Source: a virus
Length of the DNA stretch: 64,000 nt
Virus record (IMG/VR): IMGVR_UViG_3300024262_003767
Reading direction: 5' to 3' (one strand)
Shown one piece after another: positions 1,363 through 62,944 of this stretch. The notes under the pieces were generated by a model, which was not told the origin of the DNA, ran no database searches, and saw nothing but the letters and a program-made list of their open reading frames with translations. Position 1 is the stretch's first letter; each line of letters starts with the position of its first letter. The position numbers and the translations under genes are program-made.

Positions 1363-1370
1363 TATATATA
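1363..1370 (+). promoter_or_regulatory. TATATATA box (candidate phage promoter core)
   Basis: tttTATATATAag, 51 nt upstream of the ATG at 1422. Confidence 0.35.
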
Positions 1371-1421
1371 AGATATACTGTCTTTGTTTTTGATGTGTCA
1401 AAAAAAAATAAATAAAAATTA

Positions 1422-2321
1422 ATGATAAAAGAAAAAGAAATTGAAATATCTATAGGTTCTAGCAATTATTCACATTATGAAAAATACAAACCATATAAAA
1501 AGGGTGATAAAATTTTAGTTAAGATATATGACTTAATAGAAAATTCCACAGTTATCATTACCGCAATTTGTGATATTTGTAATAAAGAGAAGAAAATAAA
1601 ATATCAACCATACAACAATCAAATAAAAAAAAGCAATTTTTATTGTTGTTCTGAATGTAAAATGGTGAAAACTAGAGCTACAAATAAAAAAAAATATGGA
1701 TTTGATTATCCTATGCAAAGAGTGGAGGTTATGGTAAAGTCTAAAAATACATTATTAGAAAAATATGGAATAGAAAACATATCACAACGAGATGATATTA
1801 AACAAAAACGGAGTAAAATAATGTGTGATCCAAAATACCAAAAAAAACTTAAAAATGGGGTAATTAAAAAATATGGAGTCGATAATGCATCTTCTTTACA
1901 ATATGTTAAAGATAAAAAGAAAGAAACTACATTATCAAACTATGGTGTTGAGAATCCTTCTCAATCATCCGAAATTTTCATTAAGGCTCAAAAATCAGGA
2001 AAAAAAATTAAAGAGCATCACACAGGATTATTCTATAGAGGTACATATGAAAAAGATTTTTTAGACTTTTGTTATAAACATAAAGTACCTATCGAAAAGG
2101 GTAAAACACTTAAATATACACTAAATGGTAAAGAACGATATTATCATTCTGACTATTATATGAAAAATCTAAATTTAATAATTGAAATAAAATCAAATTA
2201 TTATTATGAGAAGTATAAAGAACAAAATATACAAAAAAAGATTTCTTCTATTAAAAATGGCTTTAACTACATTATTATTATTGATAAAGAATATGACGAA
2301 TTTTTAAGTAAATTTTCTTAA
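1422..2321 (+). CDS. Free-standing homing-endonuclease-like protein (zinc ribbon + KYG repeats + PD-(D/E)xK-like C-terminus)
   Basis: CDICNKE..CCSECK zinc ribbon, four KYG[FIV][DE]N..SQ repeats, C-terminal HSDYY..IIEIKS (D..E.K). Antisense to both neighbours; 3' end overlaps GH16 gene by 4 nt; TATATATA box at 1363. Confidence 0.5.
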   Translation: MIKEKEIEISIGSSNYSHYEKYKPYKKGDKILVKIYDLIENSTVIITAICDICNKEKKIKYQPYNNQIKKSNFYCCSECKMVKTRATNKKKYGFDYPMQRVEVMVKSKNTLLEKYGIENISQRDDIKQKRSKIMCDPKYQKKLKNGVIKKYGVDNASSLQYVKDKKKETTLSNYGVENPSQSSEIFIKAQKSGKKIKEHHTGLFYRGTYEKDFLDFCYKHKVPIEKGKTLKYTLNGKERYYHSDYYMKNLNLIIEIKSNYYYEKYKEQNIQKKISSIKNGFNYIIIIDKEYDEFLSKFS

Positions 2322-3175
2322 TAATTTCTTTCATACACTCGTATATAATCAACTACAAAATCAGCGGGCATTTCTGATGGTTCAGGTAAATATCCTAAAT
2401 CTCCTGCGGTGTTGACAATAACACTCATTTTATTATTAGGTACATTATAAATTTGTCTATATACTGGAACATTATCGATATACCATTCAACATAATTCCA
2501 TTCCCATCTACAAGCATATGTGTGAAAGTCTTTACTCCAATCAATTCTATTATTATAAGTTCTACCCAATTGTGTGCCAAAGTATCCAGTTTTTTCTTTT
2601 TTTCCAGGTGTACCAAAATGTGTGGTTAAACTAATACCTTTTGTATAATCTTTTCCAACATCACTTGTACTCATAAATTCAAAAATGTCAATCTCTGGGG
2701 GCCAGGTACTTCCATACAACCAGAACGCTGTCCACCATTTTAAACCTTGTGTTGGTGGTTTACATCGTATTTCAAAATATCCATATTGTTGATCAAATCC
2801 AATATCTTCCCATCTTGCAGTATTTAACCACCCTCTTTTGAGTTTATACTCACCCCCTGGGTTATCTTTAACATATAAATGTAAATAATTATCTTTTAAT
2901 TCTATACAGTCCAATGAAGATTCACCAGCAACCTGTTGTGGTGTGTGTTCTGTATGAGTAGAATACCATTTATTCCATTTTGTCCAATCCATTTCAGTAC
3001 CATTAAACTCATCATTAAATGTTAGTGTCCAACCTTCTTTGTCTATTGGATTGATTGGTGGGTTTGAGAACAGTTTTTTATTTGAAAAATAAAATTTACA
3101 GTAATAGTAACCATTTAAGAAAATAACATAAATGTTCCATAAAATCTCTTTAATAGCGTATAGTAAATAAGTCAT
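2318..3175 (-). CDS. Glycoside hydrolase family 16 (laminarinase/beta-glucanase-like) with N-terminal hydrophobic anchor
   Basis: GH16 catalytic motif ExDxxE present as WPPEIDIFEF; jelly-roll-like W/Y-rich sequence; hydrophobic N-terminus ILWNIYVIFLNGYYY. Confidence 0.75.
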   Translation of the reverse strand: MTYLLYAIKEILWNIYVIFLNGYYYCKFYFSNKKLFSNPPINPIDKEGWTLTFNDEFNGTEMDWTKWNKWYSTHTEHTPQQVAGESSLDCIELKDNYLHLYVKDNPGGEYKLKRGWLNTARWEDIGFDQQYGYFEIRCKPPTQGLKWWTAFWLYGSTWPPEIDIFEFMSTSDVGKDYTKGISLTTHFGTPGKKEKTGYFGTQLGRTYNNRIDWSKDFHTYACRWEWNYVEWYIDNVPVYRQIYNVPNNKMSVIVNTAGDLGYLPEPSEMPADFVVDYIRVYERNY

Positions 3176-3190
3176 ATCTATTTTTATTTT

Positions 3191-3198
3191 TATATATA
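3191..3198 (-). promoter_or_regulatory. TATATATA box
   Basis: 15 nt upstream of the GH16 start at 3175. Confidence 0.4.
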
Positions 3199-3222
3199 AA
3201 AATGTTATGGTAATGTTATATT

Positions 3223-3483
3223 CTAATTTAGATTTTGTAACTTTTTTATTCTAACATATTTTAATAAGTCTGAAAAGTCTAATTTTACAACATTCAACAT
3301 TTGTCTCATATTAAATCTATTATAACTAGGTGTGGATTCAACATCAACAAAATATGCTATCTCACAATCACAATTAATATCTATAATACCGATATTTTTA
3401 TTATCAATTTGATAAATTGATTTGACACTCAAATTGTATTTGTGTTCTAAATAATCATTTATTATTTGTTCTTTGAAAACCAT
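3223..3483 (-). CDS. Hypothetical protein
   Basis: ORF track; same-strand tight packing; ends VRIKKLQNLN (recurrent basic C-terminal motif). Confidence 0.5.
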   Translation of the reverse strand: MVFKEQIINDYLEHKYNLSVKSIYQIDNKNIGIIDINCDCEIAYFVDVESTPSYNRFNMRQMLNVVKLDFSDLLKYVRIKKLQNLN

Positions 3484-5657: not shown

Positions 5658-6491
5658 TTATATAATTTTTAATTTTTTAAGTTTATCTTTATCATAAACT
5701 TCTATTTTTTTGTCTCTATATTGTTTTTTAAAAGCAAGATATTTATCTTTTGCATCATCTCTCCACCAGCCTTTAACTTCAACATATAAATCACAATCAA
5801 TAAGGTAAAAATCTGGTCTATATGTTCCTTCAGCATTATTATAATTGATAGGAAATGCTTCTGGTTCAAAGAACCATTCTATGTTATTTTTATCCAAATA
5901 AGTTGCATATTTTATTTCCCAAGAACTTCTCATCCACACAGAATCACCATTTTTACATTTATACCATTCACCTTTACCATGATAACATTTACCATAAAAA
6001 TTAGATTCCTTACCTCTTTTTACATTTTTACTTTTATTGATTAGCATTTTTTGATATCTTATGTTTGCTTCTATTTCGCCATATTTTTCTAACCAAACAC
6101 TAAATACTGAACGACCATACATTGGATTTTTATCACCAGACATTTTGACACTTATCTTTTTTTTAGTTTTGTCTGAATGATAATTACCTATGTTAGATTG
6201 ACTTATTTTTTTCTTTACCTCGTCTGTTCTATGCTTACCTTTAAAATGATGTGTATTATTTTTGTGCCATTCGATAAGTTTTTCAATCTTAACATCTTTA
6301 TTTGTATTCGCATTCACTTTATTAGAACACGATAAGCATAGATCATTTTTAACTGCATATCTATATTTTTTTTCTACTTCAGCATCACAATCTTTACATT
6401 TCCAAATTACAGTCTTTTCGCTACTTGGTTTCAAATCATTTGAATAATACCCAAACATATCCTTTGTTTTTTGTTCTAAAATAATACCCAT
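5658..6491 (-). CDS. Homing-endonuclease-like protein (NUMOD3 repeats + PD-(D/E)xK core)
   Basis: CKDCDAEV..CLSC zinc ribbon; NUMOD3-like KISQSNIGNYHSDKTKKKISVKMSGDKNPMYGR; C-terminal YRPDFYLID..LYVEVKGWW; TATATATA box at 6514. Confidence 0.6.
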   Translation of the reverse strand: MGIILEQKTKDMFGYYSNDLKPSSEKTVIWKCKDCDAEVEKKYRYAVKNDLCLSCSNKVNANTNKDVKIEKLIEWHKNNTHHFKGKHRTDEVKKKISQSNIGNYHSDKTKKKISVKMSGDKNPMYGRSVFSVWLEKYGEIEANIRYQKMLINKSKNVKRGKESNFYGKCYHGKGEWYKCKNGDSVWMRSSWEIKYATYLDKNNIEWFFEPEAFPINYNNAEGTYRPDFYLIDCDLYVEVKGWWRDDAKDKYLAFKKQYRDKKIEVYDKDKLKKLKII

Positions 6492-6513
6492 AACATTTAT
6501 ATATTTTTCGATT

Positions 6514-6521
6514 ATATATAA
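6514..6521 (-). promoter_or_regulatory. TATATATA box
   Basis: 22 nt upstream of the start at 6491. Confidence 0.4.
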
Positions 6522-7838: not shown

Positions 7839-8660
7839 TTAAGAAATGTTTTCAAGTTTTAATGCTCTGATTTGTTTTTTAGAAAAAATATTAGTTTTTG
7901 ACTTCTTTATTAAATGTGAAAATATTTTATTTTGTATTAATTTTTTCTTTACGGAAAAATCCGCATTTACTATTTTTTCTTCAAATTCAATTAAACATTC
8001 AGGCTCACGACCATCACCTAAATAAACTTTATCTCCTACTGTGTGAAACCAAAACCATTCTATTTTAATGTCATTTTCTTTAAACAATTTATCTACTTCT
8101 GAACTTAAATAATAATAAAAATATGTTAATAATTCAGTTAAAAATTCAGTTTCAGAAAATCCATCATTACTATTTAAATAATAATACCAAAAATTACTAG
8201 GTTCAACACCTAACTCAAGACAAAGATTATCAATTTTATCAATATTTTTGTTGGTTTTATTAAAAACATAGTCATTAAACAAACTTTTAAATGATTTAGT
8301 ATCTCCATTACCTTTATCACAATTACATTTTGAACACATTGTCTGATAATTGGTAGAAGTGTTTTTACCACCTTTAGATTTTGGTATGATGTGATCTTTC
8401 GTCATTAAAATTTCATCACCGTTTTCATTTACACCATACATATTGATGTGATATTTTTCAATTTCGGGTAAATGCTTCTCAATTGCTAAAAAAATTCCTT
8501 CAAGTCCACATTCAACACAGAATCTATTTTCTTGAAATAATTTGTATCGTTGTGAGGTTATCTTAACAGTAACCCCGTTAATTGTTCGGTATCTATTTGG
8601 TCCTACACTATCCTTTAGTTTTTTTAAATAACTTATATCTAATTTACTATGTCTTATCAT
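7839..8660 (-). CDS. HNH homing endonuclease
   Basis: CVECG zinc knuckle, then HNH core LMTKDHIIPKSKGGKNTSTNYQTMCSKCNCDKGN. Confidence 0.75.
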   Translation of the reverse strand: MIRHSKLDISYLKKLKDSVGPNRYRTINGVTVKITSQRYKLFQENRFCVECGLEGIFLAIEKHLPEIEKYHINMYGVNENGDEILMTKDHIIPKSKGGKNTSTNYQTMCSKCNCDKGNGDTKSFKSLFNDYVFNKTNKNIDKIDNLCLELGVEPSNFWYYYLNSNDGFSETEFLTELLTYFYYYLSSEVDKLFKENDIKIEWFWFHTVGDKVYLGDGREPECLIEFEEKIVNADFSVKKKLIQNKIFSHLIKKSKTNIFSKKQIRALKLENIS

Positions 8661-9227: not shown

Positions 9228-9689
9228 TTATAATTGATTAAGTTTTAATTTTCTATTTTCTTTAATGAAAGAATTGTTGATTTTATTCCATAATTGTTCT
9301 TCTGAAAGTAGTTTTTGTATTTTATCATCAGAACAATACTCACATAAATATTTTTGTTTGATTAATCCCAAACAGACAGGACAATCTATGTCGCCATATT
9401 TACAGCCGTGGTTAATACAACAATGAGTTTCATGTACACCATATTTTTCCTTGGGTATTGTCGTTTTACCTTTTTTTACAGCTATCTCTTTTTCTTTTTG
9501 TTTTCGTTCAAACTCAGTTGTACTTTTGATATCTTCTAAAATATCATCACAAGTGAATTTGGAAAATTGATCTGATAATTTTTCATCCAAACCTTCAGTT
9601 CTCATTTTTTTAATAAAATCCGAAAATTCTTTCCTTTGCTCTTCATTTAAAGCAAATATTAAACTTGATATATCACTAAACATCTTCAT
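9228..9689 (-). CDS. Hypothetical Cys/His-rich (zinc-binding?) protein
   Basis: HETHCCINHGCKYGDIDCPVCLG..CEYC cluster; ends ENRKLKLNQL. Confidence 0.5.
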   Translation of the reverse strand: MKMFSDISSLIFALNEEQRKEFSDFIKKMRTEGLDEKLSDQFSKFTCDDILEDIKSTTEFERKQKEKEIAVKKGKTTIPKEKYGVHETHCCINHGCKYGDIDCPVCLGLIKQKYLCEYCSDDKIQKLLSEEQLWNKINNSFIKENRKLKLNQL

Positions 9690-9840: not shown

Positions 9841-10019
9841 ACGGCAAATATAAACAAAAATATGTAAATAAAAAATGTTCACTAAATAGAAAATGTGTTC
9901 GTTTTTGATGCACATTTTTAATTCATTATTATCACATTATTATATAATATAATGCTAATTAAGTACTTAGTATTTTTGGCACACTTTATGAGATAGTAAT
10001 AAAAAACAATATAGAAATT

Positions 10020-10265
10020 ATGAAAAATTACTTTAAACAAAGATTAAAAAGAGACAAACAAAATAAGATGATTGCTGGCGTTTGTTCAGGAATCGCAAAT
10101 TATTTTGATGTAGATCCAGTATTAGTAAGATCGGTATTTCTCGTTGGATTATTAATGCCGATTAATGGTTTTCCATTGATATATATTGTATTATGGATTT
10201 TAACACCATACGAAGAAGTTGAAGTTAAACATTATAGTAATGAAAAATATTCAGATGAAAAATAA
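10020..10265 (+). CDS. PspC-domain membrane protein
   Basis: KMIAGVCSGIANYFDVDPVLVRSVFLV followed by a TM helix. Confidence 0.75.
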   Translation: MKNYFKQRLKRDKQNKMIAGVCSGIANYFDVDPVLVRSVFLVGLLMPINGFPLIYIVLWILTPYEEVEVKHYSNEKYSDEK

Positions 10266-11070: not shown

Positions 11071-11090
11071 AATTTTAATGCTTTTTCTTT

Positions 11091-11098
11091 TATATATA
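11091..11098. promoter_or_regulatory. TATATATA box centred in a divergent intergenic region
   Basis: 20 nt from the minus-strand ATG at 11070 and 22 nt from the plus-strand ATG at 11121. Confidence 0.45.
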
Positions 11099-11120
11099 AA
11101 TAAAAATATTTTTTGTTTAA

Positions 11121-12703: not shown

Positions 12704-12724
12704 AAAATTAATATATACAGTACA

Positions 12725-13342: not shown

Positions 13343-13423
13343 AAATTTCCATAAATTATACATTTTTTAAACTTCACAATATTTTTTAATATATAATCAT
13401 CAAATTAAAAAATAATTTGTGAT

Positions 13424-15514: not shown

Positions 15515-15535
15515 AATTTTTTGATGTTTTATTTT

Positions 15536-15543
15536 TATATATT
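15536..15543 (-). promoter_or_regulatory. TATATATT box
   Basis: 21 nt upstream of the epimerase ATG at 15514. Confidence 0.4.
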
Positions 15544-15604
15544 GATTTTTTATAAATAAAAAATAATTTTTAATATATAGATAGAGAAAAAATAACAATT
15601 TCTA

Positions 15605-17434: not shown

Positions 17435-17442
17435 TATATATA
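17435..17442 (+). promoter_or_regulatory. TATATATA box
   Basis: 58 nt upstream of the ATG at 17501. Confidence 0.35.
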
Positions 17443-19379: not shown

Positions 19380-19387
19380 TATATATA
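19380..19387 (-). promoter_or_regulatory. TATATATA box
   Basis: 17 nt upstream of the GIY-YIG start at 19362. Confidence 0.4.
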
Positions 19388-19442: not shown

Positions 19443-19450
19443 TATATATA
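19443..19450 (+). promoter_or_regulatory. TATATATA box
   Basis: 14 nt upstream of the RHH ATG at 19465. Confidence 0.4.
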
Positions 19451-20017: not shown

Positions 20018-20113
20018 ACACTATATATACTTATAATAACATTAAGTTGCTATTTTTGTGTGTGATAGATAATTCTATTTAATGTGATAAAAATCACATT
20101 TTTATTTTAGTTT

Positions 20114-23243: not shown

Positions 23244-23265
23244 AAAACTTTATTAGTTTTACAAA

Positions 23266-23273
23266 TATATATT
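23266..23273 (-). promoter_or_regulatory. TATATATT box
   Basis: 22 nt upstream of the LamG paralogue 1 start at 23243. Confidence 0.4.
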
Positions 23274-24908: not shown

Positions 24909-24949
24909 AATGCAAAGATACAACTTTTCTTATTATAAAAAAAGAGGTA

Positions 24950-25684: not shown

Positions 25685-25701
25685 ATGTTATATATTATTA
25701 A

Positions 25702-25992: not shown

Positions 25993-26000
25993 TATATATT
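25993..26000. promoter_or_regulatory. TATATATT box in a divergent region
   Basis: 18 nt from the minus-strand ATG at 25974; 30 nt from the plus-strand ATG at 26031. Confidence 0.4.
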
Positions 26001-26493: not shown

Positions 26494-26501
26494 TATATAT
26501 T
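26494..26501 (-). promoter_or_regulatory. TATATATT box
   Basis: 20 nt upstream of the small-ORF ATG at 26473. Confidence 0.35.
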
Positions 26502-26704: not shown

Positions 26705-26728
26705 TTTGCTATATAGTTTAAAACCACT
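26675..26728 (+). promoter_or_regulatory. Candidate antiterminator stem (13-bp perfect inverted repeat)
   Basis: agtggttttaaac (26675-26687) pairs with gtttaaaaccact (26716-26728). The right arm overlaps the left arm of terminator 26720-26746. Confidence 0.4.
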
Positions 26729-29499: not shown

Positions 29500-29507
29500 T
29501 ATATATA
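29500..29507. promoter_or_regulatory. TATATATA box in a divergent region
   Basis: 22 nt from the plus-strand ATG at 29530; 34 nt from the cca ATG at 29465. Confidence 0.4.
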
Positions 29508-29529
29508 TTAAAAAGAATTTTTTAGTTTC

Positions 29530-36229: not shown

Positions 36230-36649
36230 TTATATATATTTTTCTTTTATTATTACAATTTCTCTTGCTTTTGAGTTATGAAATTTTCTGATAAATCTAT
36301 CAAGAGTGCGAACAAAATCATCATTATGGTTTGCTCCTGATTTAAAATGGTAATTGTGTGCGTGTGCGAATTCGTGAACTAATGTACCAACACTTTTGTC
36401 ACAATTTGCAATGGTGACAAAAGGTTTACCTCTCCTTTTACCACCCCAAGAACGATTACAATTTCTGAAATTGATATTCAATTCCATTTGGCATGAACGA
36501 GCCAACCATTTCAGTATTGTTTCAGATTCTTCTTGTGTTACACGAATCTTATTATATTTAAGTAATAACTCATATTCTTTGGTTTTATATGAAACCATAT
36601 GATATTCCCCTGGTATTTTTTCACGATTAGTGTACGTTGTTAATTTCAT
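36230..36649 (-). CDS. SprT-like zinc metallopeptidase-fold protein
   Basis: HExxH as TLVHEFAHAHNYH, with a downstream H..D. Confidence 0.45.
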   Translation of the reverse strand: MKLTTYTNREKIPGEYHMVSYKTKEYELLLKYNKIRVTQEESETILKWLARSCQMELNINFRNCNRSWGGKRRGKPFVTIANCDKSVGTLVHEFAHAHNYHFKSGANHNDDFVRTLDRFIRKFHNSKAREIVIIKEKYI

Positions 36650-36773: not shown

Positions 36774-36869
36774 AATTTCTACCCATTTTTATTTTTTAAA
36801 TAGTTAAACACCAATTATGATACAAAGATATAAATTTAGTTTCGATTAAAAAAATTAATATATAATGAT

Positions 36870-38349: not shown

Positions 38350-38357
38350 TATATATT
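38350..38357 (-). promoter_or_regulatory. TATATATT box
   Basis: 15 nt upstream of the start at 38334. Confidence 0.4.
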
Positions 38358-39280: not shown

Positions 39281-39402
39281 TTCTTTGTATTTTAACGTTA
39301 TAATTTTATTTTATATTGCAAATATATAACTTTTATTCAACACAAAAAAGAAATGTGAAATAATTTATATTAATTATTAACAAATAAAAATCAAAAATAT
39401 TT

Positions 39403-39912
39403 ATGAATTGGTATGTAATACGAGTAGTAACTAGTAAAGAAAAGAAAACAAAAGAATTAATTGAAAAAGAATTGGAACTATATAAATTAGATAATAAAGT
39501 GTCTCAAATTTTGGTTCCAAGTAAGAAAGTGATGCAAATGAGAAATGGTAAAAAATATACTATTGAAAAGAATGATTTTCCAGGATATATTCTCATCGAA
39601 ACGGATAAAGTTGATGAACTAGTTTCAACTATTAAAAATGTTTCAAATGTTTTAGGGTTTTTAGGTGTGACTCACCCAGAACCACTAAGGCAAAGAGAGG
39701 TGGAAACAATCGTTGGTAGACAAAATAACACAATAGTTGAAGATAAATATTTTATTGGTGAAGTTGTAAAAGTCACCGACGGTCCTTTTAACTCATTTGT
39801 TGGTGAAATTATTCTAGTGAATGATAAGAAGAAAGCTGTAAAAGTGAACATTAAAGTTTTTGGACGTGATGTTCCAGTAGATTTGACTTATATTCAGATA
39901 GAAAAGAATTAG
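39403..39912 (+). CDS. nusG: Transcription termination/antitermination factor NusG
   Basis: NGN start NWYVIRVVTSKEKK; KOW GEVVKVTDGPFNSFVGEIILVNDKKKAVKVNIKVFGRDVPVDL. Confidence 0.85.
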   Translation: MNWYVIRVVTSKEKKTKELIEKELELYKLDNKVSQILVPSKKVMQMRNGKKYTIEKNDFPGYILIETDKVDELVSTIKNVSNVLGFLGVTHPEPLRQREVETIVGRQNNTIVEDKYFIGEVVKVTDGPFNSFVGEIILVNDKKKAVKVNIKVFGRDVPVDLTYIQIEKN

Positions 39913-39975: not shown

Positions 39976-41106
39976 TTATTCCTCTTTTTCTTTAACTAAG
40001 TTAAGATATATCTTTCTATCATCTTTGATAACAGAAATAACCTTAACTTTTACTTGATCACCTTTCGTTAATTTGGCATTATTCTTCACAAGGTATGTGG
40101 TTTGTATTAACCCCATAGTTTCATAGTCAAGTGAAATTAATGCTCCAAAATTTTTCACATCAATTACTTTTCCTGATAATATTTTACCTACTTTAATTTT
40201 ATCCCAAAGAGACTCTTTTAAAGATTGTGTTAGTATAATCTTTTGACTTTTTGTGATTTCCTTAACATAAAAATCAATTGCCATACCAGGTAGGATTTGG
40301 TGCCATCTATCTTGCCACTCAGTATTTATGTTCATTTTATGAATCATACCTGTAAGACAATTATTGAATTGAACAAATACTCCAAATGGTGTTGTTCCAG
40401 TAACTTCGCCTGCATAAACGACATCATTTTTTAGTTTTTTGATCTCTTCTGGTATAAGTGTCTTAAGATATTTTCTTCGTGAAACAACATAAACCCCCTT
40501 TTCTTGTTGCAATGTCTCTAACATCACATTTAGAGTTTCACCAATAATTGATTCAGGATTTGCGAGTTTATTAACATCAGCTAATGTATTTGGCATAAAC
40601 GCATCGATAGTTACATTATCCATATAAATATCAAGCATATAGCCTGCTGGTATTAATTCCTTCACCTTAGCAACAAGTGATAATCTTTCTTCATAATAAG
40701 TTTTCAATTTATTATGAACATTCATTTTAATTAATTCTGTAATAGATCCTCTTATTAAGAATGGATCGTCTTGAATTGATGTTATTAGTACATCAATTTG
40801 TGAACCAGGCTCTAACCCTATCACTAATTTTCCTTTTGGTGTGTCAACATAAATGTAGTCTTTATACCCAAAATCAACAGTTATTTCTGTATCATCTATA
40901 GATACTATCACACCTTTGATTATTTCCCCTTCTCTTACTTCTCTTAAATCAAGAAAAGTTTTTTCCATCATACGATAAAGATTTTGATAATCTTCAGTAA
41001 GATTAGATAAATCACCTTTTACTTTGATTATTTCTCTATCATTAGTTAGAAACGGAAAAGGATCAGGAAGTGATCCTACATTTACGCCTTCGATTAATTT
41101 CGACAT
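39976..41106 (-). CDS. rpsA: Ribosomal protein S1-like protein (four S1/OB domains, 376 aa)
   Basis: GEIIKGVIVSIDDTEITVDFG, GYMLDIYMDNVTIDAFMP, YAGEVTGTTPFGVFVQF..LTGMIH, LSGKVIDVKNFGALISL..GLI. Confidence 0.8.
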   Translation of the reverse strand: MSKLIEGVNVGSLPDPFPFLTNDREIIKVKGDLSNLTEDYQNLYRMMEKTFLDLREVREGEIIKGVIVSIDDTEITVDFGYKDYIYVDTPKGKLVIGLEPGSQIDVLITSIQDDPFLIRGSITELIKMNVHNKLKTYYEERLSLVAKVKELIPAGYMLDIYMDNVTIDAFMPNTLADVNKLANPESIIGETLNVMLETLQQEKGVYVVSRRKYLKTLIPEEIKKLKNDVVYAGEVTGTTPFGVFVQFNNCLTGMIHKMNINTEWQDRWHQILPGMAIDFYVKEITKSQKIILTQSLKESLWDKIKVGKILSGKVIDVKNFGALISLDYETMGLIQTTYLVKNNAKLTKGDQVKVKVISVIKDDRKIYLNLVKEKEE

Positions 41107-44075: not shown

Positions 44076-44083
44076 TATATATA
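44076..44083. promoter_or_regulatory. TATATATA box in a divergent region
   Basis: 25 nt from the minus-strand ATG at 44050; 56 nt from the plus-strand ATG at 44140. Confidence 0.4.
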
Positions 44084-44139
44084 TTAAATTGTAAACTTTA
44101 AACCGAAAAATTAATAAAAAGTAAAAATAAAGTCCAACA

Positions 44140-55265: not shown

Positions 55266-55721
55266 TTATAAATTATATTTATCCATTTGATCCATTTGAT
55301 CTTTCACATTCTTTCTCAAATCATCCAAATTTGTGAGTTGTTGTCTTGGATGACGAATTTTCAGTCTATCAGATATTGCATCCAATATAAAAGGTTCTAT
55401 ATCTTGATATCCTTTATTTTCTACCATATCACTAATATCTTTTGGTAACCAAATTTGATAATATTTAAGTTCACTATCAAAATTTCCTCTTGCTTGCAAT
55501 CCTTGTATATTAGACATTCCTTGACGGTCTTTATTAATTTTTATCATCTTTTCAATACCTAGAACTTTTTTAAATCTACCATCTTTTTCTTCAATAAATT
55601 CAGGTCTTGCCACAAAAGCAAATAAGTCATGTTCTTTACTATTTGGATTCATATCAAATAGTTCTTGAAATACTTTTAAATCTTCTTCACTATATCCTTC
55701 AAAATATTTTAAATGTTCCAT
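55266..55721 (-). CDS. Hypothetical protein
   Basis: ORF track; ends MDKYNL. Confidence 0.5.
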   Translation of the reverse strand: MEHLKYFEGYSEEDLKVFQELFDMNPNSKEHDLFAFVARPEFIEEKDGRFKKVLGIEKMIKINKDRQGMSNIQGLQARGNFDSELKYYQIWLPKDISDMVENKGYQDIEPFILDAISDRLKIRHPRQQLTNLDDLRKNVKDQMDQMDKYNL

Positions 55722-56407
55722 TATATTACGTTTATTTCATTAGCCATACAAACTTCACCATAATCTTTGATAAGTTTGTCCATATCATCAAATGAGATAT
55801 ATGCAAATCCTTTTTTACCCCATTCTCTACCCCAAGAATTTTTAATTCTTATTAGTTTCTTTTTAACATTAACACCATCTAATAAATATGCGTGTCCGCC
55901 CATTTTATTTCCTGTTGGAGTTATAATACCTTCACTATTTGGAAAAAACATATCATAGTACCACCAAGTACCAACAACAACAGGACCTAATGTTAATAAT
56001 GCGTTTACTGTTGTGTCAATATCCCAAGCCCAATTATATCCATTAATATACCCTGCAGATTGTAAAACTTTAGCACCAGCTCTAACACTAGTTCCATCAT
56101 AATCTTCACCAGGCCAACGATCTATCTTTTGTGCTTCATTATATAAATATTCTGTATCATAAGGTGCTACTCCACCTTTTCTACTTGCTTTTTGTGTTAT
56201 TGGACCAGAGGCTAACCAATGTATCCAACTAAATGCAACACAATGAGGTTTATAACCTTGATTTCCCCACCATCCATTTGTCCACCAATATTTATAATCT
56301 ATACCTGGTAATTTTTTAGGTAGCATTGAACTAATTAGGAATTGATGATCCCTATCATCAGGTTTTATAAATCTACCTAATCTTGATTTTAATTGATTTT
56401 CATTCAT
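55721..56407 (-). CDS. Papain-like cysteine peptidase (C1 family)
   Basis: Catalytic-Cys context QGYKPHCVAFSW, His GGHAYLLDG, Asn/Trp IKNSWGREWGKKGFAYI. Confidence 0.7.
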   Translation of the reverse strand: MNENQLKSRLGRFIKPDDRDHQFLISSMLPKKLPGIDYKYWWTNGWWGNQGYKPHCVAFSWIHWLASGPITQKASRKGGVAPYDTEYLYNEAQKIDRWPGEDYDGTSVRAGAKVLQSAGYINGYNWAWDIDTTVNALLTLGPVVVGTWWYYDMFFPNSEGIITPTGNKMGGHAYLLDGVNVKKKLIRIKNSWGREWGKKGFAYISFDDMDKLIKDYGEVCMANEINVI

Positions 56408-56425: not shown

Positions 56426-56433
56426 TATATATT
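56426..56433 (-). promoter_or_regulatory. TATATATT box
   Basis: 18 nt upstream of the C1 peptidase ATG at 56407; overlaps the stop of the M16 gene. Confidence 0.4.
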
Positions 56434-57583
56434 AAAATTCAGAATTATAAATGGATTTGTAAAATTTACCCCAATTAAAATACTTATCCATTGTTTGAAA
56501 TATATCATCAAGAGTTATCTTATGAATAAGGTGTTCCATACTCCAACATTCAGGTTCAATATATTTATTGACATTTGCGTGTCTTAATATGTCGTTCTTT
56601 TTTAGTTTAACTAAAAAATTATCTTTAATAATATCAAATCTATCTTGTGTCAAATAAATTTCTTTATTACTTAATACTTTACCTATTTCTTCTTGCAAAT
56701 GCTCTACATTCTTATTTGAAGTCTCAGTTAAGATTGTAACAACTGAAGATGTATTATTTAATTTTTGGTTAATACATTGAACATAATATGCTAATCCTGA
56801 TTTTTCTCTAATTTCTTGATATAGTGGAGAATTTAATCCAGAACCTAACATACTACAAGTATAACTAATTAATGGAAAATCTTCAGTTGCAACATTTGAA
56901 ATATTTATAATTGATTGTTTATTTTTATATTCGTTAATTAACTCTAACGGCACTAAACCTTCGGGTATAATGATATCATCATTAGTTCTAATTCCAAATG
57001 TTTCCGTTTCGATAAATTTGAATGGGGTATTTATAATACTATCTCTAAAATCAACATTAAAATCAAAATCATTGTTTTTAGATACATTAATTATCATTGT
57101 AGGTTTCTTATAGAAAAGATTTAAATATTCTTTACAATCATCTAAAGTGAAATTTTCTATATCACACCTTAATCCTATTGGGTGATAATAACCAAACATT
57201 TTTCTATTTAAATTTAGAAAATGGTTATTCATCTGTTCATTAAATGAATCTTTATATTCTTCCAAAACAATTTTTTTCTCATTTTCTAATTCTTCTTCTG
57301 TTGGATCATAAGATAGAATCAATTCTAGAAATTCATATTTATATTTATTAACATATTCATCCAATCCATTCATATAAAAAACTACTTCTGTATTAGATGT
57401 ATATGCGTTCCAAGCGACACCATATCTTTGAAAATCATCTTGTAAATGTTCAAATGACTTACAAATTAAATGCTCACAGATATGGGAGGCTCCAAATGTT
57501 CCAACTTTTTCTACCATTGTAGATCCATCAAATATTATATAAAATGAGGATAATTCTATTTCACTTTTAATGTTTTTTATCAT
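56432..57583 (-). CDS. M16 (pitrilysin-family) zinc peptidase
   Basis: Inverted zinc motif HxxEH in GASHICEHLICKS; GVAWNAYTSNTEVVFY; EKKIVLEEY. Confidence 0.7.
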   Translation of the reverse strand: MIKNIKSEIELSSFYIIFDGSTMVEKVGTFGASHICEHLICKSFEHLQDDFQRYGVAWNAYTSNTEVVFYMNGLDEYVNKYKYEFLELILSYDPTEEELENEKKIVLEEYKDSFNEQMNNHFLNLNRKMFGYYHPIGLRCDIENFTLDDCKEYLNLFYKKPTMIINVSKNNDFDFNVDFRDSIINTPFKFIETETFGIRTNDDIIIPEGLVPLELINEYKNKQSIINISNVATEDFPLISYTCSMLGSGLNSPLYQEIREKSGLAYYVQCINQKLNNTSSVVTILTETSNKNVEHLQEEIGKVLSNKEIYLTQDRFDIIKDNFLVKLKKNDILRHANVNKYIEPECWSMEHLIHKITLDDIFQTMDKYFNWGKFYKSIYNSEF

Positions 57584-57879
57584 AATATTCTTTTTAATTT
57601 TATTTTACGAATTCTTTTTTCTATTTCTCTTAATTGTTTATCTGATATTTCACCTTTATCTATCTTACTTAAATATACATCAAATAGTGCTTCATCAGGT
57701 TCTTTACCTGTATATCCTAAAACACAATGTTTAAAGGCTTCTAATATTTCTTCACCATTTTCAACCTTTTTAATGTCACCATGATGATTATAATACACAT
57801 CCCCATTATTTCTAAATTCGAGTAATGGTTTATCTATTCCATTAATTGTGAATACTACTCCTGGAGTTAATCCTATCAC
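57580..57879 (-). CDS. Hypothetical protein
   Basis: ORF track; 4-nt overlaps on both sides; ends EKRIRKIKLKRIL. Confidence 0.5.
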   Translation of the reverse strand: MIGLTPGVVFTINGIDKPLLEFRNNGDVYYNHHGDIKKVENGEEILEAFKHCVLGYTGKEPDEALFDVYLSKIDKGEISDKQLREIEKRIRKIKLKRIL

Positions 57880-58111: not shown

Positions 58112-61100
58112 TTAAAAATCTGTTATCAAAGATGATATCAAATTATCATTTTTCTTAACAGTTATTAATCCATCATAATTTATTGGATGAACATGCTCAA
58201 TTATAATAATTTTATCAATTTTATTTTTTATTTCGTCTAATAGTTCAATAAATTCCATAACAGATTTTTCATATAATTTGCCCATAATCTCATCAAGAAT
58301 AATAAAATTAGGTCTTGATTTTACATTAATTTGTCTTAATGCAATTTTTAATGTTAATGCACAAAATGTTCTTTCTTTACCTGATGATTCGATTGCATTT
58401 TGTGAAACATCTAATCTATCATCCATACTTAATTTTAAAATTAAATCATCATTAAAGAATAATGTAAAATCAACATTAGTCAATAAGTCGTTCAATTCTT
58501 TATTTATTAGATGTATAGATTTTTTTAGAAGATAAGTAGGAATACCGTCTCTGGATATACATCTCTGGTACTCTTTCATTAGTTCTTCTTGCTTTTTTTG
58601 TTGAATAAATTTCTCAATTCGTGATTGAATATCTTCTATTGATTTTTCTAATAATGCTATTTCTTTTTTAATTTCAGATATTACTATATATTTTTCATCA
58701 ATATTACTTTTCAATTCTAAAATATACACATCTTTATCATCAATGTCTAATTGAGTTTGTTTATTTTCCTCAATTTGTGATTCATACATTTTAAAATTAT
58801 TAATAGTTTGTTCTATTTCTTTAATCTTCAAAAGATAATTATCAATATTTAATGTTAGTTTTTCTTTTAAATTGACTTTATCTTTTCTTAGTTCGTAATT
58901 TTCTTTAATTTTTTCTTCATGTTGAATATCATCTTCAATAGATTCAATATTTAATGATTTTAACTCGTTTTCAAGATTTTTAATTACCGATAAATTGTCA
59001 TTTTTATCTTTATCTAATTTTTTCAATAACATTTTACCTTTATCAAATTTATTTTTTAATTCTTCATTAATTGATAAATCATTATTTTTTAATCTTTCAA
59101 TTAACGATTCAATCATTAATATTTCATTCTCAAGATATTTAGTATCTTGAAGAACGTTTAATTCTGATAATATTTCTTCGTCATATTCACCACTTGTTAA
59201 TTTATCTCGTTTTAATCTGAGAGTCTGAATTTTTTCCTCTAATTCGGGTATAATAGGTGTTAAATCTTTATATTCCTCAATTAAATCCTTTATTTTAATA
59301 GTATTAATTTCTATATCATGTTCTAATGTTTTAATCTTTTCTTGAATGTGTTCTAAATGATCGGGTGTAGATTCGTCATAATCTCTACCACATGCAGGAC
59401 AAAAACTTGAATTTTTAAATTCTTCAATTTCTTGAAGTTTCTCATCATTTCGTGATTTTAAATTTGAACCATCTTTTTTCAGATTTCTAATTTTATTTTC
59501 GAGATTAATTTTTTCAAGTTCATTCTTCTTTATCTCATCTTTAATTGATATTATTTTTGAGTTTATTATACTCAATTTTTCACTTTCAACATTAGAAATT
59601 TCTTTTTCTTTAATGTTAATTTTGTCTTTTAAATTATTAATTTCTTTATCTCTAAACTCTCTAAGTTTTTGTTTTACTTTATCAACCTTCGTATCAATTT
59701 CATTATTATTTGTTTTAACTGATGATATTTCTTCTTTTATTTTTGAAATTTTATCATTAGTTAATTTTAATTTATCTTTTAAATTGTTAAGTTTATCTGG
59801 CTCAAATTTAGAAGGTAATTCATTTATATCTCTATCATAGATACTTATTTGTACTTTATTATCATCAATCTTTTGATTATAATTTGATAATGTATTATTT
59901 GAAATATTCAGATCAAAATTGATCATCGATTCATCAATTTTATTTAATTTTTTAATTAAATTATCTCTTAAAGAATTTTCACTATCCAATTCTAATTTAA
60001 AATCTATAATCAATTTCTTTTGTTCTTTTATCGTATTTTTCTTCTCTTCTATTACATTTACGATTTCAGAAATCTCTTGCTCTGATTGACTAACATCAAC
60101 TATAATTTTTTCAATGTTGAGATCTTTTTTATAATCTTTATATTCATTTTGTTTCTTTTCAAAAATATCATAACCAGCATCTCTAATGATGCTATCCATA
60201 AACACACTTCTATCAGCAGATAAAAGTTCATTCAAATTATCTGCATTAGTTAATGATATTCTAACAAAATCTTTAAAATCACCAAGAATAAGATCTAATT
60301 TCTTTTGAGTTTGAGTTTTTCTTTCACCAGTTTGTTTATTCTTTTCTTTTATTTCTTCAGTATCATAATAGTCCACATTGGTAGAACAAGATTTTATTTC
60401 TCCACTTCTATTTTCATCTCGTTCAGTTTTTCTCAAAATTGTAATTTTTTCACCATCAATATCTAAAACAGCGCCACCTGAACATTTATTTAATTTTCGT
60501 TTATTGTTAATATATCTATTATCACCGTGTTTTTCTCTTTTTACGGTAGTTGTGGTTGTACCATAAAGAATATATGTTATAACATCTAAAATAGTAGTTT
60601 TTCCTTGTTGGTTTTCACCATGAATTTGTATGATACCATTTAAATCTTTCCAATCAATTTTATTTTTATCACCAAAAACTCTAAAATTATCAAACCAAAA
60701 TTTTTCAATTTTCCACTCAATGTTAGTTTTTTGTTCTTTAATCTCTAATCTATCATTAATTAAATCATCAATTTTTAAAATTTCATCAATATCATTTTTT
60801 TTATATCCTTGTTCTTCAAGATATTCTTTAAATATTTTACGTTGAGTTTCAACATTTGTTAAATCTAATGTTTCAGATAACATTTTAGATGAAACCATAT
60901 CTGTATAAATGTATGTTTTATCAAATTTTACTTTGGTTGAATCATATTTATTTTTAATAAAGTTTCGTATTTTTCTTTCATTTTCAGTATTGATGTTGGA
61001 ACTTAAATCTTTCCAATGCACTTTAAATTCAGGAAAATTTCCAATTCTTTCATTTGTGTGTAATGTCAAATTATCATAATCTTCACCTTCATTGATATAT

Positions 61101-61279
61101 AAATTGATAAATGTATATTCATTAAGAATATCTATTTCTTCAACTCTAAAGTCAGTTTTACTTTTTATATCCCAAACCAAAAATCCATGTTTATCAACAT
61201 CTTCACCAAATGATTGTTGAACTGGACTACCAGGGTAACCAATAGTTGGTATTTTTTTCTTTATTTTTATTTTAGACAT
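58112..61279 (-). CDS. Fusion protein: C-terminal fragment of Mre11/SbcD nuclease (aa 1-~187) + Rad50/SbcC SMC-like ATPase (aa ~188-1055)
   Basis: IGYPGSPVQQSFGEDVDKHGF (post-motif-V segment of SbcD); P-loop HGENQQGKTT at aa 220-229; CPACG zinc hook; very long coiled coils; Walker B FIILDEIMG. Confidence 0.85.
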   Translation of the reverse strand: MSKIKIKKKIPTIGYPGSPVQQSFGEDVDKHGFLVWDIKSKTDFRVEEIDILNEYTFINLYINEGEDYDNLTLHTNERIGNFPEFKVHWKDLSSNINTENERKIRNFIKNKYDSTKVKFDKTYIYTDMVSSKMLSETLDLTNVETQRKIFKEYLEEQGYKKNDIDEILKIDDLINDRLEIKEQKTNIEWKIEKFWFDNFRVFGDKNKIDWKDLNGIIQIHGENQQGKTTILDVITYILYGTTTTTVKREKHGDNRYINNKRKLNKCSGGAVLDIDGEKITILRKTERDENRSGEIKSCSTNVDYYDTEEIKEKNKQTGERKTQTQKKLDLILGDFKDFVRISLTNADNLNELLSADRSVFMDSIIRDAGYDIFEKKQNEYKDYKKDLNIEKIIVDVSQSEQEISEIVNVIEEKKNTIKEQKKLIIDFKLELDSENSLRDNLIKKLNKIDESMINFDLNISNNTLSNYNQKIDDNKVQISIYDRDINELPSKFEPDKLNNLKDKLKLTNDKISKIKEEISSVKTNNNEIDTKVDKVKQKLREFRDKEINNLKDKINIKEKEISNVESEKLSIINSKIISIKDEIKKNELEKINLENKIRNLKKDGSNLKSRNDEKLQEIEEFKNSSFCPACGRDYDESTPDHLEHIQEKIKTLEHDIEINTIKIKDLIEEYKDLTPIIPELEEKIQTLRLKRDKLTSGEYDEEILSELNVLQDTKYLENEILMIESLIERLKNNDLSINEELKNKFDKGKMLLKKLDKDKNDNLSVIKNLENELKSLNIESIEDDIQHEEKIKENYELRKDKVNLKEKLTLNIDNYLLKIKEIEQTINNFKMYESQIEENKQTQLDIDDKDVYILELKSNIDEKYIVISEIKKEIALLEKSIEDIQSRIEKFIQQKKQEELMKEYQRCISRDGIPTYLLKKSIHLINKELNDLLTNVDFTLFFNDDLILKLSMDDRLDVSQNAIESSGKERTFCALTLKIALRQINVKSRPNFIILDEIMGKLYEKSVMEFIELLDEIKNKIDKIIIIEHVHPINYDGLITVKKNDNLISSLITDF

Positions 61280-62148
61280 TTATTTAATTTTATTTTAAAT
61301 TCACCATTTAGAATATTGGTTTCCCAGAACCTTAAAATATTAAAATTATTAGATTTTGAAAGTTCATCTTTAAAAATATCATTTTCAATATTTAACATCT
61401 GAGTCTTATTTAATTCATTTATATTAAATATGTTGGGGTTAGCATGCCAATAATCACCATCTGCCTCAATAATTATATTTTTATCTATTAACATAAAATC
61501 ATATATTTTATATCTTAATTTACCATCAAGTTTATAGTATATTCTAAATTGTGGTTTATATTTTATTGATTTTTCATCTAAAAAATCACCTATAATTTTT
61601 TCTATTTTAGTTTTACTTTTTTTAAATAACCCTTTATGTGCGATTTCCGTCATACTTAAACCATATCTTTCAATGCAAGTATTATTAATTTTTTTTCTAC
61701 ATTCATCGTCTTTCCAATTATGTGTTGTACCATATCGTTCTAAGAACGTATTTTTTCTTTTTATTTTTGATTCAGGTTTCCATCCAAATGGAAATTCATT
61801 ATTTTGATTATATTCTAATTTAGATTTCCTAACTTTATTTTTATAATTTTCATCACTCCACAATTTTTTAGTTATTTTTGAATGTAAATCTTTACTTTCT
61901 TGTGTTTTTACCTTACCAAACATTGGATTTTTTTCACCAACATATATAATTTTTTTATGCTCATCACAACATTTCCTTGAGCAATATTTTTTATCATCAG
62001 ATACTAATACTTCAATATCAACTCCACAATTTATACAATAAATAATTTTTCTTTCAACCTTAGATTTCTTATAATCTTTATATTGACATTTCCTTGAACA
62101 ATATTTCTTATTATTATGTTTCTCACCACAAACTATACATTTTTTCAT
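61267..62148 (-). mobile_element. Free-standing homing-endonuclease-like gene inserted inside the mre11/sbcD coding region
   Basis: CIVCGE..CSRKC and CINCG..CSRKCC knuckles, NUMOD3-like GEKNPMFGK, ERYG repeats, Vsr/DUF559 core YDFMLID..IIIEADGDYWH; own TATATATA box at 62170. Confidence 0.65.
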
Positions 62149-62169
62149 AGATTTTTTGTTGTTTTATAG

Positions 62170-62177
62170 TATATATA
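62170..62177 (-). promoter_or_regulatory. TATATATA box
   Basis: 21 nt upstream of the endonuclease ATG at 62148, inside the split mre11 locus. Confidence 0.4.
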
Positions 62178-62191
62178 AAAATATAATACTA

Positions 62192-62848
62192 CTATTCTGA
62201 TAATATCCAACCATTTTTTAAATATTCATCTAAGTCTTTATCATCTATCTCCATTTCTACTTCTTTATATTTGAAAAACTGCCTTTTATGTATATCACCA
62301 AGAAAAAGAAAATCATTCTTTTTAAAATCATTAATACTCTTGTACATACTATCAGTAAAAAATTTACCTCTATCGGTAGAACTATTTTGTATAGGGTCAT
62401 GAAACAAACCTATATAAATTTGTTCTTTTTTCTTTGTTTGTCCAACCCAAGGATCATTTAATTTGTCAGGGTGATCATATACAACCCAAGATATATTACC
62501 TTCATCATAAATACCTGTTGTGTCATAATATGTCACATTAGGATTATCAATCAATTTAACTACAACCTTTATACTATCAGTTCTATTTAAATTTTTCTTA
62601 CGCAAATCGTGATTACCTCTTGTTATAATAACTTTGGCTATATGTGAAAGTTTGTTTAAAAATTCACCACCGAGTATTTTTGCTTCATTGGAAATTTCAA
62701 TAAAATTTTCAAATAAATCACCAACAATTACAATTTTTTCTGGTTGTCTTATTTTTAATTCGTTATATATTTTTTCAAATACTTCTCTATACTCATCATG
62801 TCTCTCTACATTTCTAATGTGTACATCTGCTAAATGTGCTATCTTCAT
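62192..62848 (-). CDS. N-terminal fragment of Mre11/SbcD nuclease (phosphoesterase motifs I-V)
   Basis: LADVHIR (I), IVGDLFE (II), TRGNHD (III), GLFHD (IV), LGDIHKRQ (V), then a 26-aa non-conserved tail and stop. Confidence 0.8.
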   Translation of the reverse strand: MKIAHLADVHIRNVERHDEYREVFEKIYNELKIRQPEKIVIVGDLFENFIEISNEAKILGGEFLNKLSHIAKVIITRGNHDLRKKNLNRTDSIKVVVKLIDNPNVTYYDTTGIYDEGNISWVVYDHPDKLNDPWVGQTKKKEQIYIGLFHDPIQNSSTDRGKFFTDSMYKSINDFKKNDFLFLGDIHKRQFFKYKEVEMEIDDKDLDEYLKNGWILSE

Positions 62849-62936
62849 TCAACTTCTTATTTTTTATTTAGAATAAATCTAATTATTATATGTTATACCC
62901 TTGAAATAGTTTAATGAAAAATAAATTATGAATTTT

Positions 62937-62944
62937 TATATATA
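62937..62944 (+). promoter_or_regulatory. TATATATA box
   Basis: 23 nt upstream of the deoC ATG at 62968. Confidence 0.4.

Follow-up and report, generated by a model that had tools for sequence, protein, structure and literature searches.

A late promoter of phage T4 requires only an 8-bp element of A and T near -10, with no -35; it depends on gp55, gp33 and the sliding clamp (gp45) and gives short leaders. In phage phiEco32, the phage sigma factor gp36, a member of the sigma-70 family, redirects the host core polymerase to a single tAATGTAtA element without a -35, with transcription starting 6-8 bp downstream; the early genes rely on promoters of the host sigma (PMC8948821). Early promoters of the RNA polymerase-encoding jumbo phages phiKZ and AR9, the latter with a virion RNA polymerase, contain a conserved AT-rich motif of ~10 nt near -10, found bioinformatically upstream of operons (PMC7598289). 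In Bacteroidota, the primary-sigma promoter combines TTTG at -33 with a -7 element, TAnnTTTG (TAHHTTTG), nearly invariant at six positions (T-12, A-11, T-8, T-7, T-6 and G-5; PMC6847099). Here we analyze a 64,000-nt stretch of viral DNA, IMG/VR record IMGVR_UViG_3300024262_003767 (hereafter the window), in which a palindromic TATATA box (TATATATA and variants) recurs upstream of genes.

The position of a promoter element also marks leaderless genes. Their accepted signature in bacteria is a distance of 6-8 nt between -10 box and start codon, and in leaderless archaeal genes a TATA box lies 22-24 nt from the start; 408 of 450 Bacteroidetes/Chlorobi species belong to group B, with leaders but without Shine-Dalgarno (SD) sequences (PMC6028130). 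The largest known phage genomes, of up to 735 kb, are known from metagenomes only. In the literature searched we found no description of their transcription, and nothing relevant on TATATATA phage promoters, crAss-like promoter motifs or megaphage promoters.

The window (26.9% GC) is densely packed with small genes, most of them on the minus strand. Within the phage collection, DNA or protein relatives were limited to LR756501-4 and LR745206, uncultured genomes of 634-735 kb that Al-Shayeb et al. assigned to the Bacteroidetes-infecting 'Mahaphage' clade; the window is a piece of such a Mahaphage-type huge phage. SD-like sequences are few (before 8 of 176 genes of the window lineage) and A content reaches 60-66% at positions -10 to -19 before the same starts, both consistent with this placement. 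Closer relatives are found in IMG/VR, with 56-60% identity in a 614-aa protein for L002-L004 and 35% for L005/L006.

The closest precedent for the box is phiEco32 gp36, since the box is likewise a single short AT-rich element of the -10 region without a -35. In our best explanation, which we hold to be likely as a whole, the box would be the -10-region core of a promoter class specific to Mahaphage-type huge phages infecting Bacteroidota. The full element would be TTTT-W-A-TATATA, with no -35 required and a single geometry relative to the transcription start. The host RNA polymerase core, most probably, would be redirected to the box by a clade-conserved phage sigma factor resembling the extracytoplasmic function (ECF) type, and a separate set of cell-derived auxiliary genes would be driven by host sigma-A promoters (TAnnTTTG). 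Unlike in phiEco32, the box has another sequence, the host is one of the Bacteroidota and not E. coli, and the link between sigma and box is proposed from sequence comparison.

Enrichment, form and conservation of the box

The plus strand of the window holds 20 copies of TATATATA and 23 of TATATATT, and many functional-looking sites are AATATATA rather than TATATATW; the 21 occurrences listed in the initial annotation are thus real, but an undercount. The annotation had also proposed a comparison with composition-matched shuffles. Against dinucleotide-preserving shuffles, TATATATA was ~9-fold enriched in the 7,840 nt of intergenic DNA (15 observed, 1.6 expected, z=10) and TATATAT occurred there 29 times for 5.3 expected (z about 10), whereas in coding DNA TATATAT was slightly depleted (17 for 27.8 expected). 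The earlier statement that nearly all boxes are intergenic holds as an enrichment, but a few boxes (36231, 50097, 56426) overlap the 3' ends of upstream genes. All of its example coordinates were correct.

An expectation-maximization motif search returned TTTT-W-A-TATATA followed by an A/G-rich stretch as the full motif. Upstream of genes, TTTTWATATA was found 19 times in the sense orientation (2.1 expected, z=11.8) and 12 times in antisense, for 4.0 expected. The latter count is due in large part to divergent gene pairs with one palindromic box in common: TATATATA between a T-run and an A-run is its own reverse complement, so that one box would fire both ways. The box at 11091-11098 does lie almost midway between two divergent starts, as first described, provided that the minus-strand gene begins at internal ATG 11070 and not at the start of its longest open reading frame (ORF). 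The T-run next to the box is the only departure from an even position-by-position composition in the upstream sequence, as for a single element without a -35.

Other promoter-like signals fared poorly. Candidates for a general -35 element (AAAC, AAAGTTT) were inconsistent among boxes, and AAAGTTT was confined to the region of the 614-aa gene. Sigma-70 -35/-10 promoters were not enriched (147 found, 139 expected), nor were TTGACA and TATAAT. The T-run did not behave as a terminator tail, a GC hairpin preceding only 3-4% of T-run boxes, equal to controls. Strong intrinsic terminators do occur in the window, at 46900-46933 (a bidirectional hairpin between convergent genes) and 52984-53015 (abutting a box), and terminator-like sites are enriched in the 40-60 kb interval (12 found, 4.0 expected).

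The initial annotation had placed the box in the style of T4 late promoters. The analogy stands at the level of function, and box-driven genes include those of the large terminase and of structural-looking proteins, but not at the level of sequence: TATAAATA/TATTTATA occurred 5 times in intergenic DNA for 5.4 expected and was unenriched in L010-L013 too. Unlike T4 late promoters, the box has an obligatory T-run, is a perfect palindrome used both ways and precedes many non-late-looking genes.

Upstream of the 614-aa gene, a box was present 17-25 nt from the ATG in every relative examined. These were nine genomes, namely L002-L006 (35-60% identity; L005 and L006 carry identical sequence) and four complete genomes of 634-735 kb (31-41% identity). 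In the four complete genomes this box sits directly behind a terminator hairpin, and boxes placed directly after terminators leave no room for another promoter. Boxes are conserved as well at the genes for ClpB, thymidine kinase (TK), ClpS and a 153-aa protein. In the complete 735,411-bp genome LR756501, TATATATA is 40-fold denser in intergenic DNA (1.51/kb) than in ORFs (0.038/kb). In crAss001, an unrelated AT-rich Bacteroides phage, TATATA reached z=1.3 only, TTTWATATA was absent and no spacing peak was seen.

These results bear on two readings of the box other than a promoter. In a genome of 27% GC, slippage readily makes (TA)n, and the boxes could be functionless low-complexity sequence in AT-rich spacers. 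We give this next to no weight, since enrichment over dinucleotide-matched shuffles is 5- to 9-fold (z about 10), spacing peaks are sharp, the element is absent from crAss001, and its position is conserved across genomes with 31-60% protein identity while the flanks diverge. The perfect palindrome would also suit an operator bound by a phage regulator that acts as a dimer, for instance one of the ribbon-helix-helix (RHH) type, and two small window proteins give weak RHH/CopG-like hits. These hits fall below Pfam thresholds, however. An operator needs neither the register-locked A start, the pyrimidine at -1 nor the two sharp spacing classes described below, and most boxes have no other promoter-like motif nearby, sigma-70-like sites being unenriched and TAnnTTTG lying mostly elsewhere. 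We regard an operator as very improbable.

Strand-aware enrichment, conservation in nine genomes, a register-locked start signature, placement after terminators and absence from crAss001 together support reading the box as, quite probably, a promoter core, and the phage-specific promoter core first proposed gains support on the same grounds. It would be a palindromic, phage-specific single-element promoter of the -10 region, used clade-wide in the largest known phages, and would reveal leaderless genes as a class in a Bacteroidota system; it would also offer a first testable picture of how genes are switched on in uncultured megaphages.

Two spacing classes and the predicted transcription start

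In 176 genes of the window lineage the distance between hexamer and ATG was bimodal, with 21 hexamers at 2-7 nt, 2 at 8-11 nt and 46 at 12-25 nt. The far class had its mode at 22 nt, and other AT hexamers were spread evenly. An annotation-free scan gave the same two peaks at first ATGs (close peak 4-7 nt) and a flat profile at non-first ATGs. Among the 953 ORFs of LR756501, a spike of 37 genes stood at exactly 5 nt, beside a broad peak at 15-25 nt. The fixed short distance of the initial annotation is thus replaced by a distribution (mode 21-22 nt) and a second class at 2-7 nt. Its 15 boxes at 14-25 nt proved a correct or conservative count, ~19 lying 14-28 nt from first-ATG ORF starts. The box at 52975, described there as essentially leaderless, is of the leaderless type but is one of a class, with ~9 genes in the window and 37 in the 735-kb relative.

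The 37 close-class genes of LR756501 share the consensus T(95%)-W-A-TATATA-G(76%)-NNN-Y-ATG. A pyrimidine stood at -1 in 36 of 37, compared with 323 of 640 box-less genes (p=1e-9). Multisubunit RNA polymerases generally prefer start sites with a pyrimidine at -1 and a purine at +1. ATGs of the far class showed no such bias (61/116, 53%, p=0.69), but when these genes were aligned on the box, A made up 87, 90 and 83% of the sixth to eighth nucleotides past the hexamer, which is where close-class genes have the A of their ATG. The window lineage repeated both features, with a -1 pyrimidine in 13 of 14 close-class genes (p=0.003) and a far-class A triplet at 73-76%. Furthermore, the box-to-ATG distance of one orthologous gene (window ATG 36870) differs between genomes: it is 5 nt in both the window and L003, 2-4 nt in L002, and 22 nt in L004.

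From the -1 pyrimidine, the register-locked A triplet and this orthologue found at both spacings we infer a single geometry, in which the hexamer would occupy about -11 to -6 and transcription would start on the A six nt past TATATA. Such a start fits the ~6-8 bp given for phiEco32. In the close class (box 4-7 nt from the ATG) the mRNA would begin on or next to the start codon and be leaderless. In the far class (14-28 nt) it would carry an A-rich, SD-free leader of 9-23 nt (mode 16-17 nt), and not the 5' untranslated region of 5-15 nt first estimated.

The close class has its box at the distance from the start codon that marks the bacterial leaderless arrangement, as in the Mycobacterium-type promoters of GeneMarkS-2 group C (~6-8 nt; PMC6028130). 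Unlike in group C, the leaderless type occurs here in a Bacteroidota phage, and genes with short leaders share its box. The phiEco32 account consulted reports no leaderless class (PMC8948821). A sizeable class of leaderless mRNAs predicted in a Bacteroidota system stands against F. johnsoniae, where leaders average 33 nt and exceed 10 nt in 87% of predicted transcripts (PMC6847099). It is also relevant to the proposal that huge phages use S1 and initiation factors of their own to redirect translation.

The same signature decides against two further readings. TTTATATA fits the archaeal TATA consensus, and an archaeal- or eukaryotic-style TATA box would lie ~26 nt upstream of the transcription start and make the 22-nt class leaderless. 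The far mode of 22 nt indeed equals the 22-24 nt box-start distance of leaderless archaeal genes (PMC6028130), and a figure legend names 'TFIIB' among huge-phage-encoded functions. We rejected this geometry because of the -1 pyrimidine test: far-class ATGs lack the start signature, which appears as the A triplet 6 nt past the box, and the same element 5 nt from an ATG would start transcription inside genes. In addition, the gene content is bacterial (NusG PF02357, S1, ClpB, peptide deformylase), the 735-kb relative has no NADFDGD/DFDGD polymerase and the hosts are Bacteroidota. Altogether we consider a TATA box of this style extremely improbable.

The box might instead act in RNA, as an AU-rich translational enhancer bound by ribosomal S1 or a phage S1-like protein, and be no promoter. 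S1 prefers A/U-rich leaders, the phage encodes an S1-domain protein, SD sequences are as scarce as noted above and the distance from box to start codon is constrained. But a single palindromic box serving both divergent genes is a symmetry of DNA, and boxes behind terminators leave no space for an upstream promoter. The -1 pyrimidine of the close class (97%) characterizes transcription starts and is not known to play any part in translation. The conserved A triplet keeps its register with the box instead of the ATG, and T-run and box are oriented by gene direction. An RNA enhancer is therefore very unlikely in our view.

Box position and homology together disfavour the longest-ORF starts of 10510-11160, 14501-15598, 24114-24923 and 52621-52974, whose true starts are probably the internal ATGs 11070, 15514, about 24908 and 52968. 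The box rule is thus usable for start-codon correction, several longest-ORF starts in the window being probably wrong, and as a clade-wide promoter rule it would also serve to annotate transcription units.

Host-type promoters and the candidate reader of the box

A second promoter class was detected in the sense orientation, where TAnnTTTG occurred 26 times for 9.6 expected (z=5.4); it was not enriched in antisense (19 for 17.2). The same method recovered TAHHTTTG in crAss001 (z=5.0). The element is kept before the NAD-salvage genes and also before the radical-SAM gene, where L002-L004 all have it at 26 nt from the ATG. The initial suggestion that operons without a box form a different class was borne out: the pncA operon and the radical-SAM, PspC-like and DNA ligase genes carry TAnnTTTG instead. 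In LR756501, TAHHTTTG precedes genes for an NAPRTase, an ATP-dependent ligase, M42 and M28 peptidases, a flavoprotein and a cation-efflux protein. Short-leader boxes precede those for the T4-type large terminase, a 1,664-aa collagen-like protein, a hybrid kinase and large ORFans, and leaderless-class boxes precede ORFans almost exclusively. This distribution supports a functional split between host-type promoters for cell-derived auxiliary genes and the box for phage genes, and the promoter rule would sort genes into host-promoter and phage-promoter regulons. The TAnnTTTG class independently indicates a Bacteroidota host.

The initial annotation had pointed to a phage sigma-like factor or RNA polymerase as the possible reader; in the complete relative LR756501 we found the former and not the latter. 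None of its 953 ORFs carried the multisubunit RNA polymerase signature NADFDGD/DFDGD, a screen that could miss a very divergent polymerase, and none had a convincing T7-like polymerase motif. The motifs of phiKZ and AR9, by contrast, are read by phage multisubunit RNA polymerases. LR756501 does encode one sigma-70-family, ECF-like protein (Sigma70_r2 2e-10, r4_2 6.5e-7). It has 163 homologues, on contigs of up to 736 kb. The gene was found on 47 IMG/VR contigs, among them contigs from the samples of L002, L003 and L004, and from the sample in which one window gene recurs as an exact copy. Contigs with the sigma gene use the box at the same spacing: across 296 of their genes, 58% of hexamers lay at 18-26 nt and none at 8-12 nt.

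ECF sigmas typically recognize an AAC-containing -35 element and are autoregulated. A TATATA box lay at most 45 nt from the ATG in 25 of 39 sigma genes, and most short-form sigma genes with a box share AAACAAA-N14-16-TTAC-TATATA, ~20-25 nt before the ATG (L041-L070), as expected for an autoregulated ECF sigma. A cascade in which the sigma gene has a host-type promoter only did not hold, most sigma genes carrying the variant box and five of them TAnnTTTG as well. A look-alike of the variant (AAACAAA-N16-TGC-TATATA, followed by a hairpin) lies in the window at 26684-26715, upstream of an RNase H-like gene (26773-27324).

In the 289-aa sigma, the region-4 helix-turn-helix (YKDIAD ... TTNLSTIKSQIKKGR) is interrupted by an insertion of ~85 aa (alignment A1). 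In gp36, region 4 is missing, which accounts for the lack of a -35 in its promoters; among the megaphage sigmas the short form has region 4 intact and the long form has the ~85 aa inserted. We consider this conserved ECF-like sigma the leading candidate for reader of the box, with a chance somewhat short of even, and the promoter rule thereby nominates a specific sigma factor.

Several observations weigh against the explanation proposed here, some of them against the sigma as reader. In the ~205-aa form (e.g., L065, L042) the region 4.2 helix-turn-helix is intact, as judged by eye from the sequence, yet ordinary boxes lack the AAC -35 that ECF sigmas normally need. The sigma gene is absent from the 64-kb window and unlinked to the window's own genome; a single-protein scan of IMG/VR for that genome's sigma returned only a near-identical copy. 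The co-distribution of box and sigma comes without a sigma-less relative as control, and the sigma gene of LR756501 itself has no good box. A phmmer search of LR756501 with a gp55 sequence, a weak test, gave no match, and the screen would have missed a diverged factor, gp55-like or otherwise. Other observations concern geometry and timing. The start position is derived from sequence statistics, the trough at 8-13 nt could in part reflect the A-rich tract at -10 to -19 excluding TATATA, and the boxes at 1363 and 17435 lie 51-58 nt from their genes. Finally, box-driven genes include those for ClpB, TK, DeoC and homing-endonuclease-like proteins, so that a simple 'late' label does not fit and any early or late assignment would be provisional.

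The main competing view keeps the promoter and changes its reader to a non-ECF factor, be it host sigma-A with a variant -7, a small phage factor or a gp55-like protein. The box indeed resembles the Bacteroidota sigma-A promoter in register (8-mer ending 4-5 nt before +1; ~5 nt for the host -7 element), in the AT-rich tract about one helical turn upstream and in its A-rich, SD-free leaders (PMC6847099). The T-run is located at the place of the Flavobacterium AT-rich -18 motif, a G at -5 is common to TAnnTTTG and the LR756501 close class (76%), three window sites merge both motifs as TATATATTTG, and the missing AAC -35 speaks for a non-ECF reader as well. On the other hand, the box has no TTTG, and of the nearly invariant host positions it misses T-7 and G-5; its leaders would be of 0 or ~9-23 nt. 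The box is not enriched in crAss001, a phage dependent on a Bacteroides host, and the two motifs divide by gene function, each conserved separately in orthologues. We judge a non-ECF reader unlikely.

If the phage sigma does read the box, the two could form part of a host-orthogonal expression channel, a speculative extension that we hold with little confidence. In it, the phage sigma, in some cases with a large insert in the helix-turn-helix that reads the -35, would direct host core polymerase to the -35-less palindromic TATATATA, and the transcripts, leaderless or with very short A-rich leaders, would be preferentially translated with phage S1 and translation factors, promoter choice and mRNA architecture separating phage from host expression. 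A short palindromic promoter of this kind could provide a compact orthogonal expression part for Bacteroidota.

Features and further genes of the window

Table 1. Promoter elements and associated genes. Positions refer to the window unless another sequence is named; distances are nucleotides between box and start codon.
Feature	Position	Strand	Gene or start codon, distance	Remarks
Short-leader box	3191..3198	-	GH16 glycosidase gene 2318-3175, 15 nt	T-run upstream, A-rich downstream
Short-leader box	6513..6520	-	endonuclease-like gene 5658-6491, 21 nt
Second box	6498-6504		same endonuclease-like ATG 6491, 6 nt
Shared palindromic box	11091..11098		11121 (+), 22 nt; 11070 (-), 20 nt	divergent region
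Box	13389..13395	+	gene 13424-13771, 28 nt	AATATATAA form
Box	15536..15542	-	epimerase gene, 15514, 21 nt	corrected start
Box	15573..15579	+	gene 15605-16657, 25 nt
Box	19380..19387	-	endonuclease-like gene 18364-19362, 17 nt
Box	19443..19450	+	49-aa ORF 19465-19614, 14 nt	weak RHH hit
Box fused with host-type element	23265..23272	-	LamG-like virion-protein gene 21897-23243, 21 nt	TATATATTTG
Shared box	25993..25999		25974 (-), 18 nt; 26031 (+), 31 nt	divergent region
Box	26494..26500	-	small ORF 26321-26473, 20 nt
Shared box	29500..29508		29530 (+), 21 nt; 29465 (-, CCA-adding enzyme), 34 nt	divergent region
Box	38350..38356	-	gene 37324-38334, 15 nt
Best-conserved box	44076..44084		44050 (614-aa gene 42206-44050, -), 25 nt	faces gene 44140 (+), 55 nt
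Box	49496..49502	-	ClpB gene 46956-49472, 23 nt	kept in L002 and L003
Hexamer box	50097..50102	-	ClpS gene 49778-50080, 16 nt	within pncB 3' end; also in L002
Box	56426..56432	-	papain-like peptidase gene 55721-56407, 18 nt
Box	62170..62177	-	DUF7487 endonuclease-like gene 61267-62148, 21 nt
Box	62937..62944	+	DeoC gene 62968-63768, 23 nt
Leaderless-type box	52975..52982	-	ATG 52968 (gene 52621-52968), 6 nt	directly after terminator hairpin 52984-53015
Leaderless-type box	36858..36864	+	ATG 36870, 5 nt
Leaderless-type box	36231..36239	-	ATG 36228, 2-4 nt	overlaps last codons of gene 36230-36649
Leaderless-type box	25689..25695	-	ATG 25684, 4 nt
Leaderless-type box	20022..20029	-	ATG 20017 (70-aa membrane ORF), 4 nt
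Leaderless-type box	12711..12717	+	ATG 12725 (69-aa ORF), 7 nt	ORF also called in ENA contig L008
Hexamer box	5659..5664	-	peptide deformylase ATG 5651, 7 nt	weaker close-class member
Spacing outlier box	1363..1370	+	start 1422, 51 nt
Spacing outlier box	17435..17442	+	start 17501 (class II aminoacyl-tRNA synthetase-like gene), 58 nt
Host-type -7	52103..52110	-	pncA (51377-52078), 24 nt	TACTTTTG; NAD-salvage operon head
Host-type element	39319..39326	-	radical-SAM gene 38390-39280, 38 nt	TATATTTG
Host-type element	9971..9978	+	PspC-like gene 10020-10265, 41 nt	TATTTTTG
Host-type element	1318..1325	-	NAD-dependent DNA ligase start 1280, 37 nt	TACTTTTG; gene exits window
NusG homologue	39403..39912	+		bacterial type
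Phage S1-domain protein	39976..41106	-
ECF-like sigma gene	LR756501 491201-492070 (L023:41201-42070)	-		289-aa form

The genes of the window are bacterial in type. They encode NusG (PF02357), an S1-domain protein, a hybrid histidine kinase and an SbcC-like ATPase, and precomputed Pfam hits on identical ENA contigs add ClpB, ClpS, thymidine kinase, peptide deformylase, NUDIX, PspC-like, GH16, flotillin, C1 peptidase, M16 peptidase and DeoC. The S1-domain protein may help SD-independent translation of A-rich or leaderless mRNAs. No sequence match to the 614-aa protein was found in Pfam, PHROG or PDB, and the long gaps of the window yielded no tRNAs or known RNA families.

The hybrid sensor kinase (PAS-HisKA-HATPase-receiver, 31774-33954) is clade-wide, with orthologues in L002-L004 and at 36067-38280 of LR756501. 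Such unusual cargo suggests that the phage senses or rewires host signalling.

A Mre11/SbcD-like nuclease gene (62192-62848, Metallophos) and a SbcC/Rad50-like gene (58112-61279) are split by a free-standing endonuclease-like gene (61267-62148, DUF7487), which has its own box promoter. The ATPase domain of the 1,055-aa SbcC/Rad50-like protein begins only at ~residue 197, and the N-terminal stretch may therefore be a C-terminal segment displaced from the Mre11/SbcD-like nuclease.

Similar Lys/Leu/Asn-rich C-terminal tails (...KLKLNQL, ...KKYNL, ...NKYNL, ...DKYNL, ...KLQNLN) recur in many small proteins that otherwise show no relation, for example those encoded at 9228-9689, 16654-16986, 16983-17408, 55266-55721, 3223-3483, 57580-57879, 44140-44694 and 7839-8660. 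The tails may be a common signal, or may arise because the next gene needs an A-rich initiation region free of SD sequences.

The product of 10510-11070, a gene that shares the bidirectional box at 11091, has weak, sub-threshold similarity to anti-CBASS (cyclic oligonucleotide-based antiphage signalling system) Acb1/2H phosphoesterases (PF23474 4.6e-5; PF13563 1.6e-4) and is a possible counter-defence gene. The weak RHH/CopG-like hits, also sub-threshold, fall on the small proteins of 35491-35772 and 19465-19614; both are possible transcription regulators, and one of them is box-driven.

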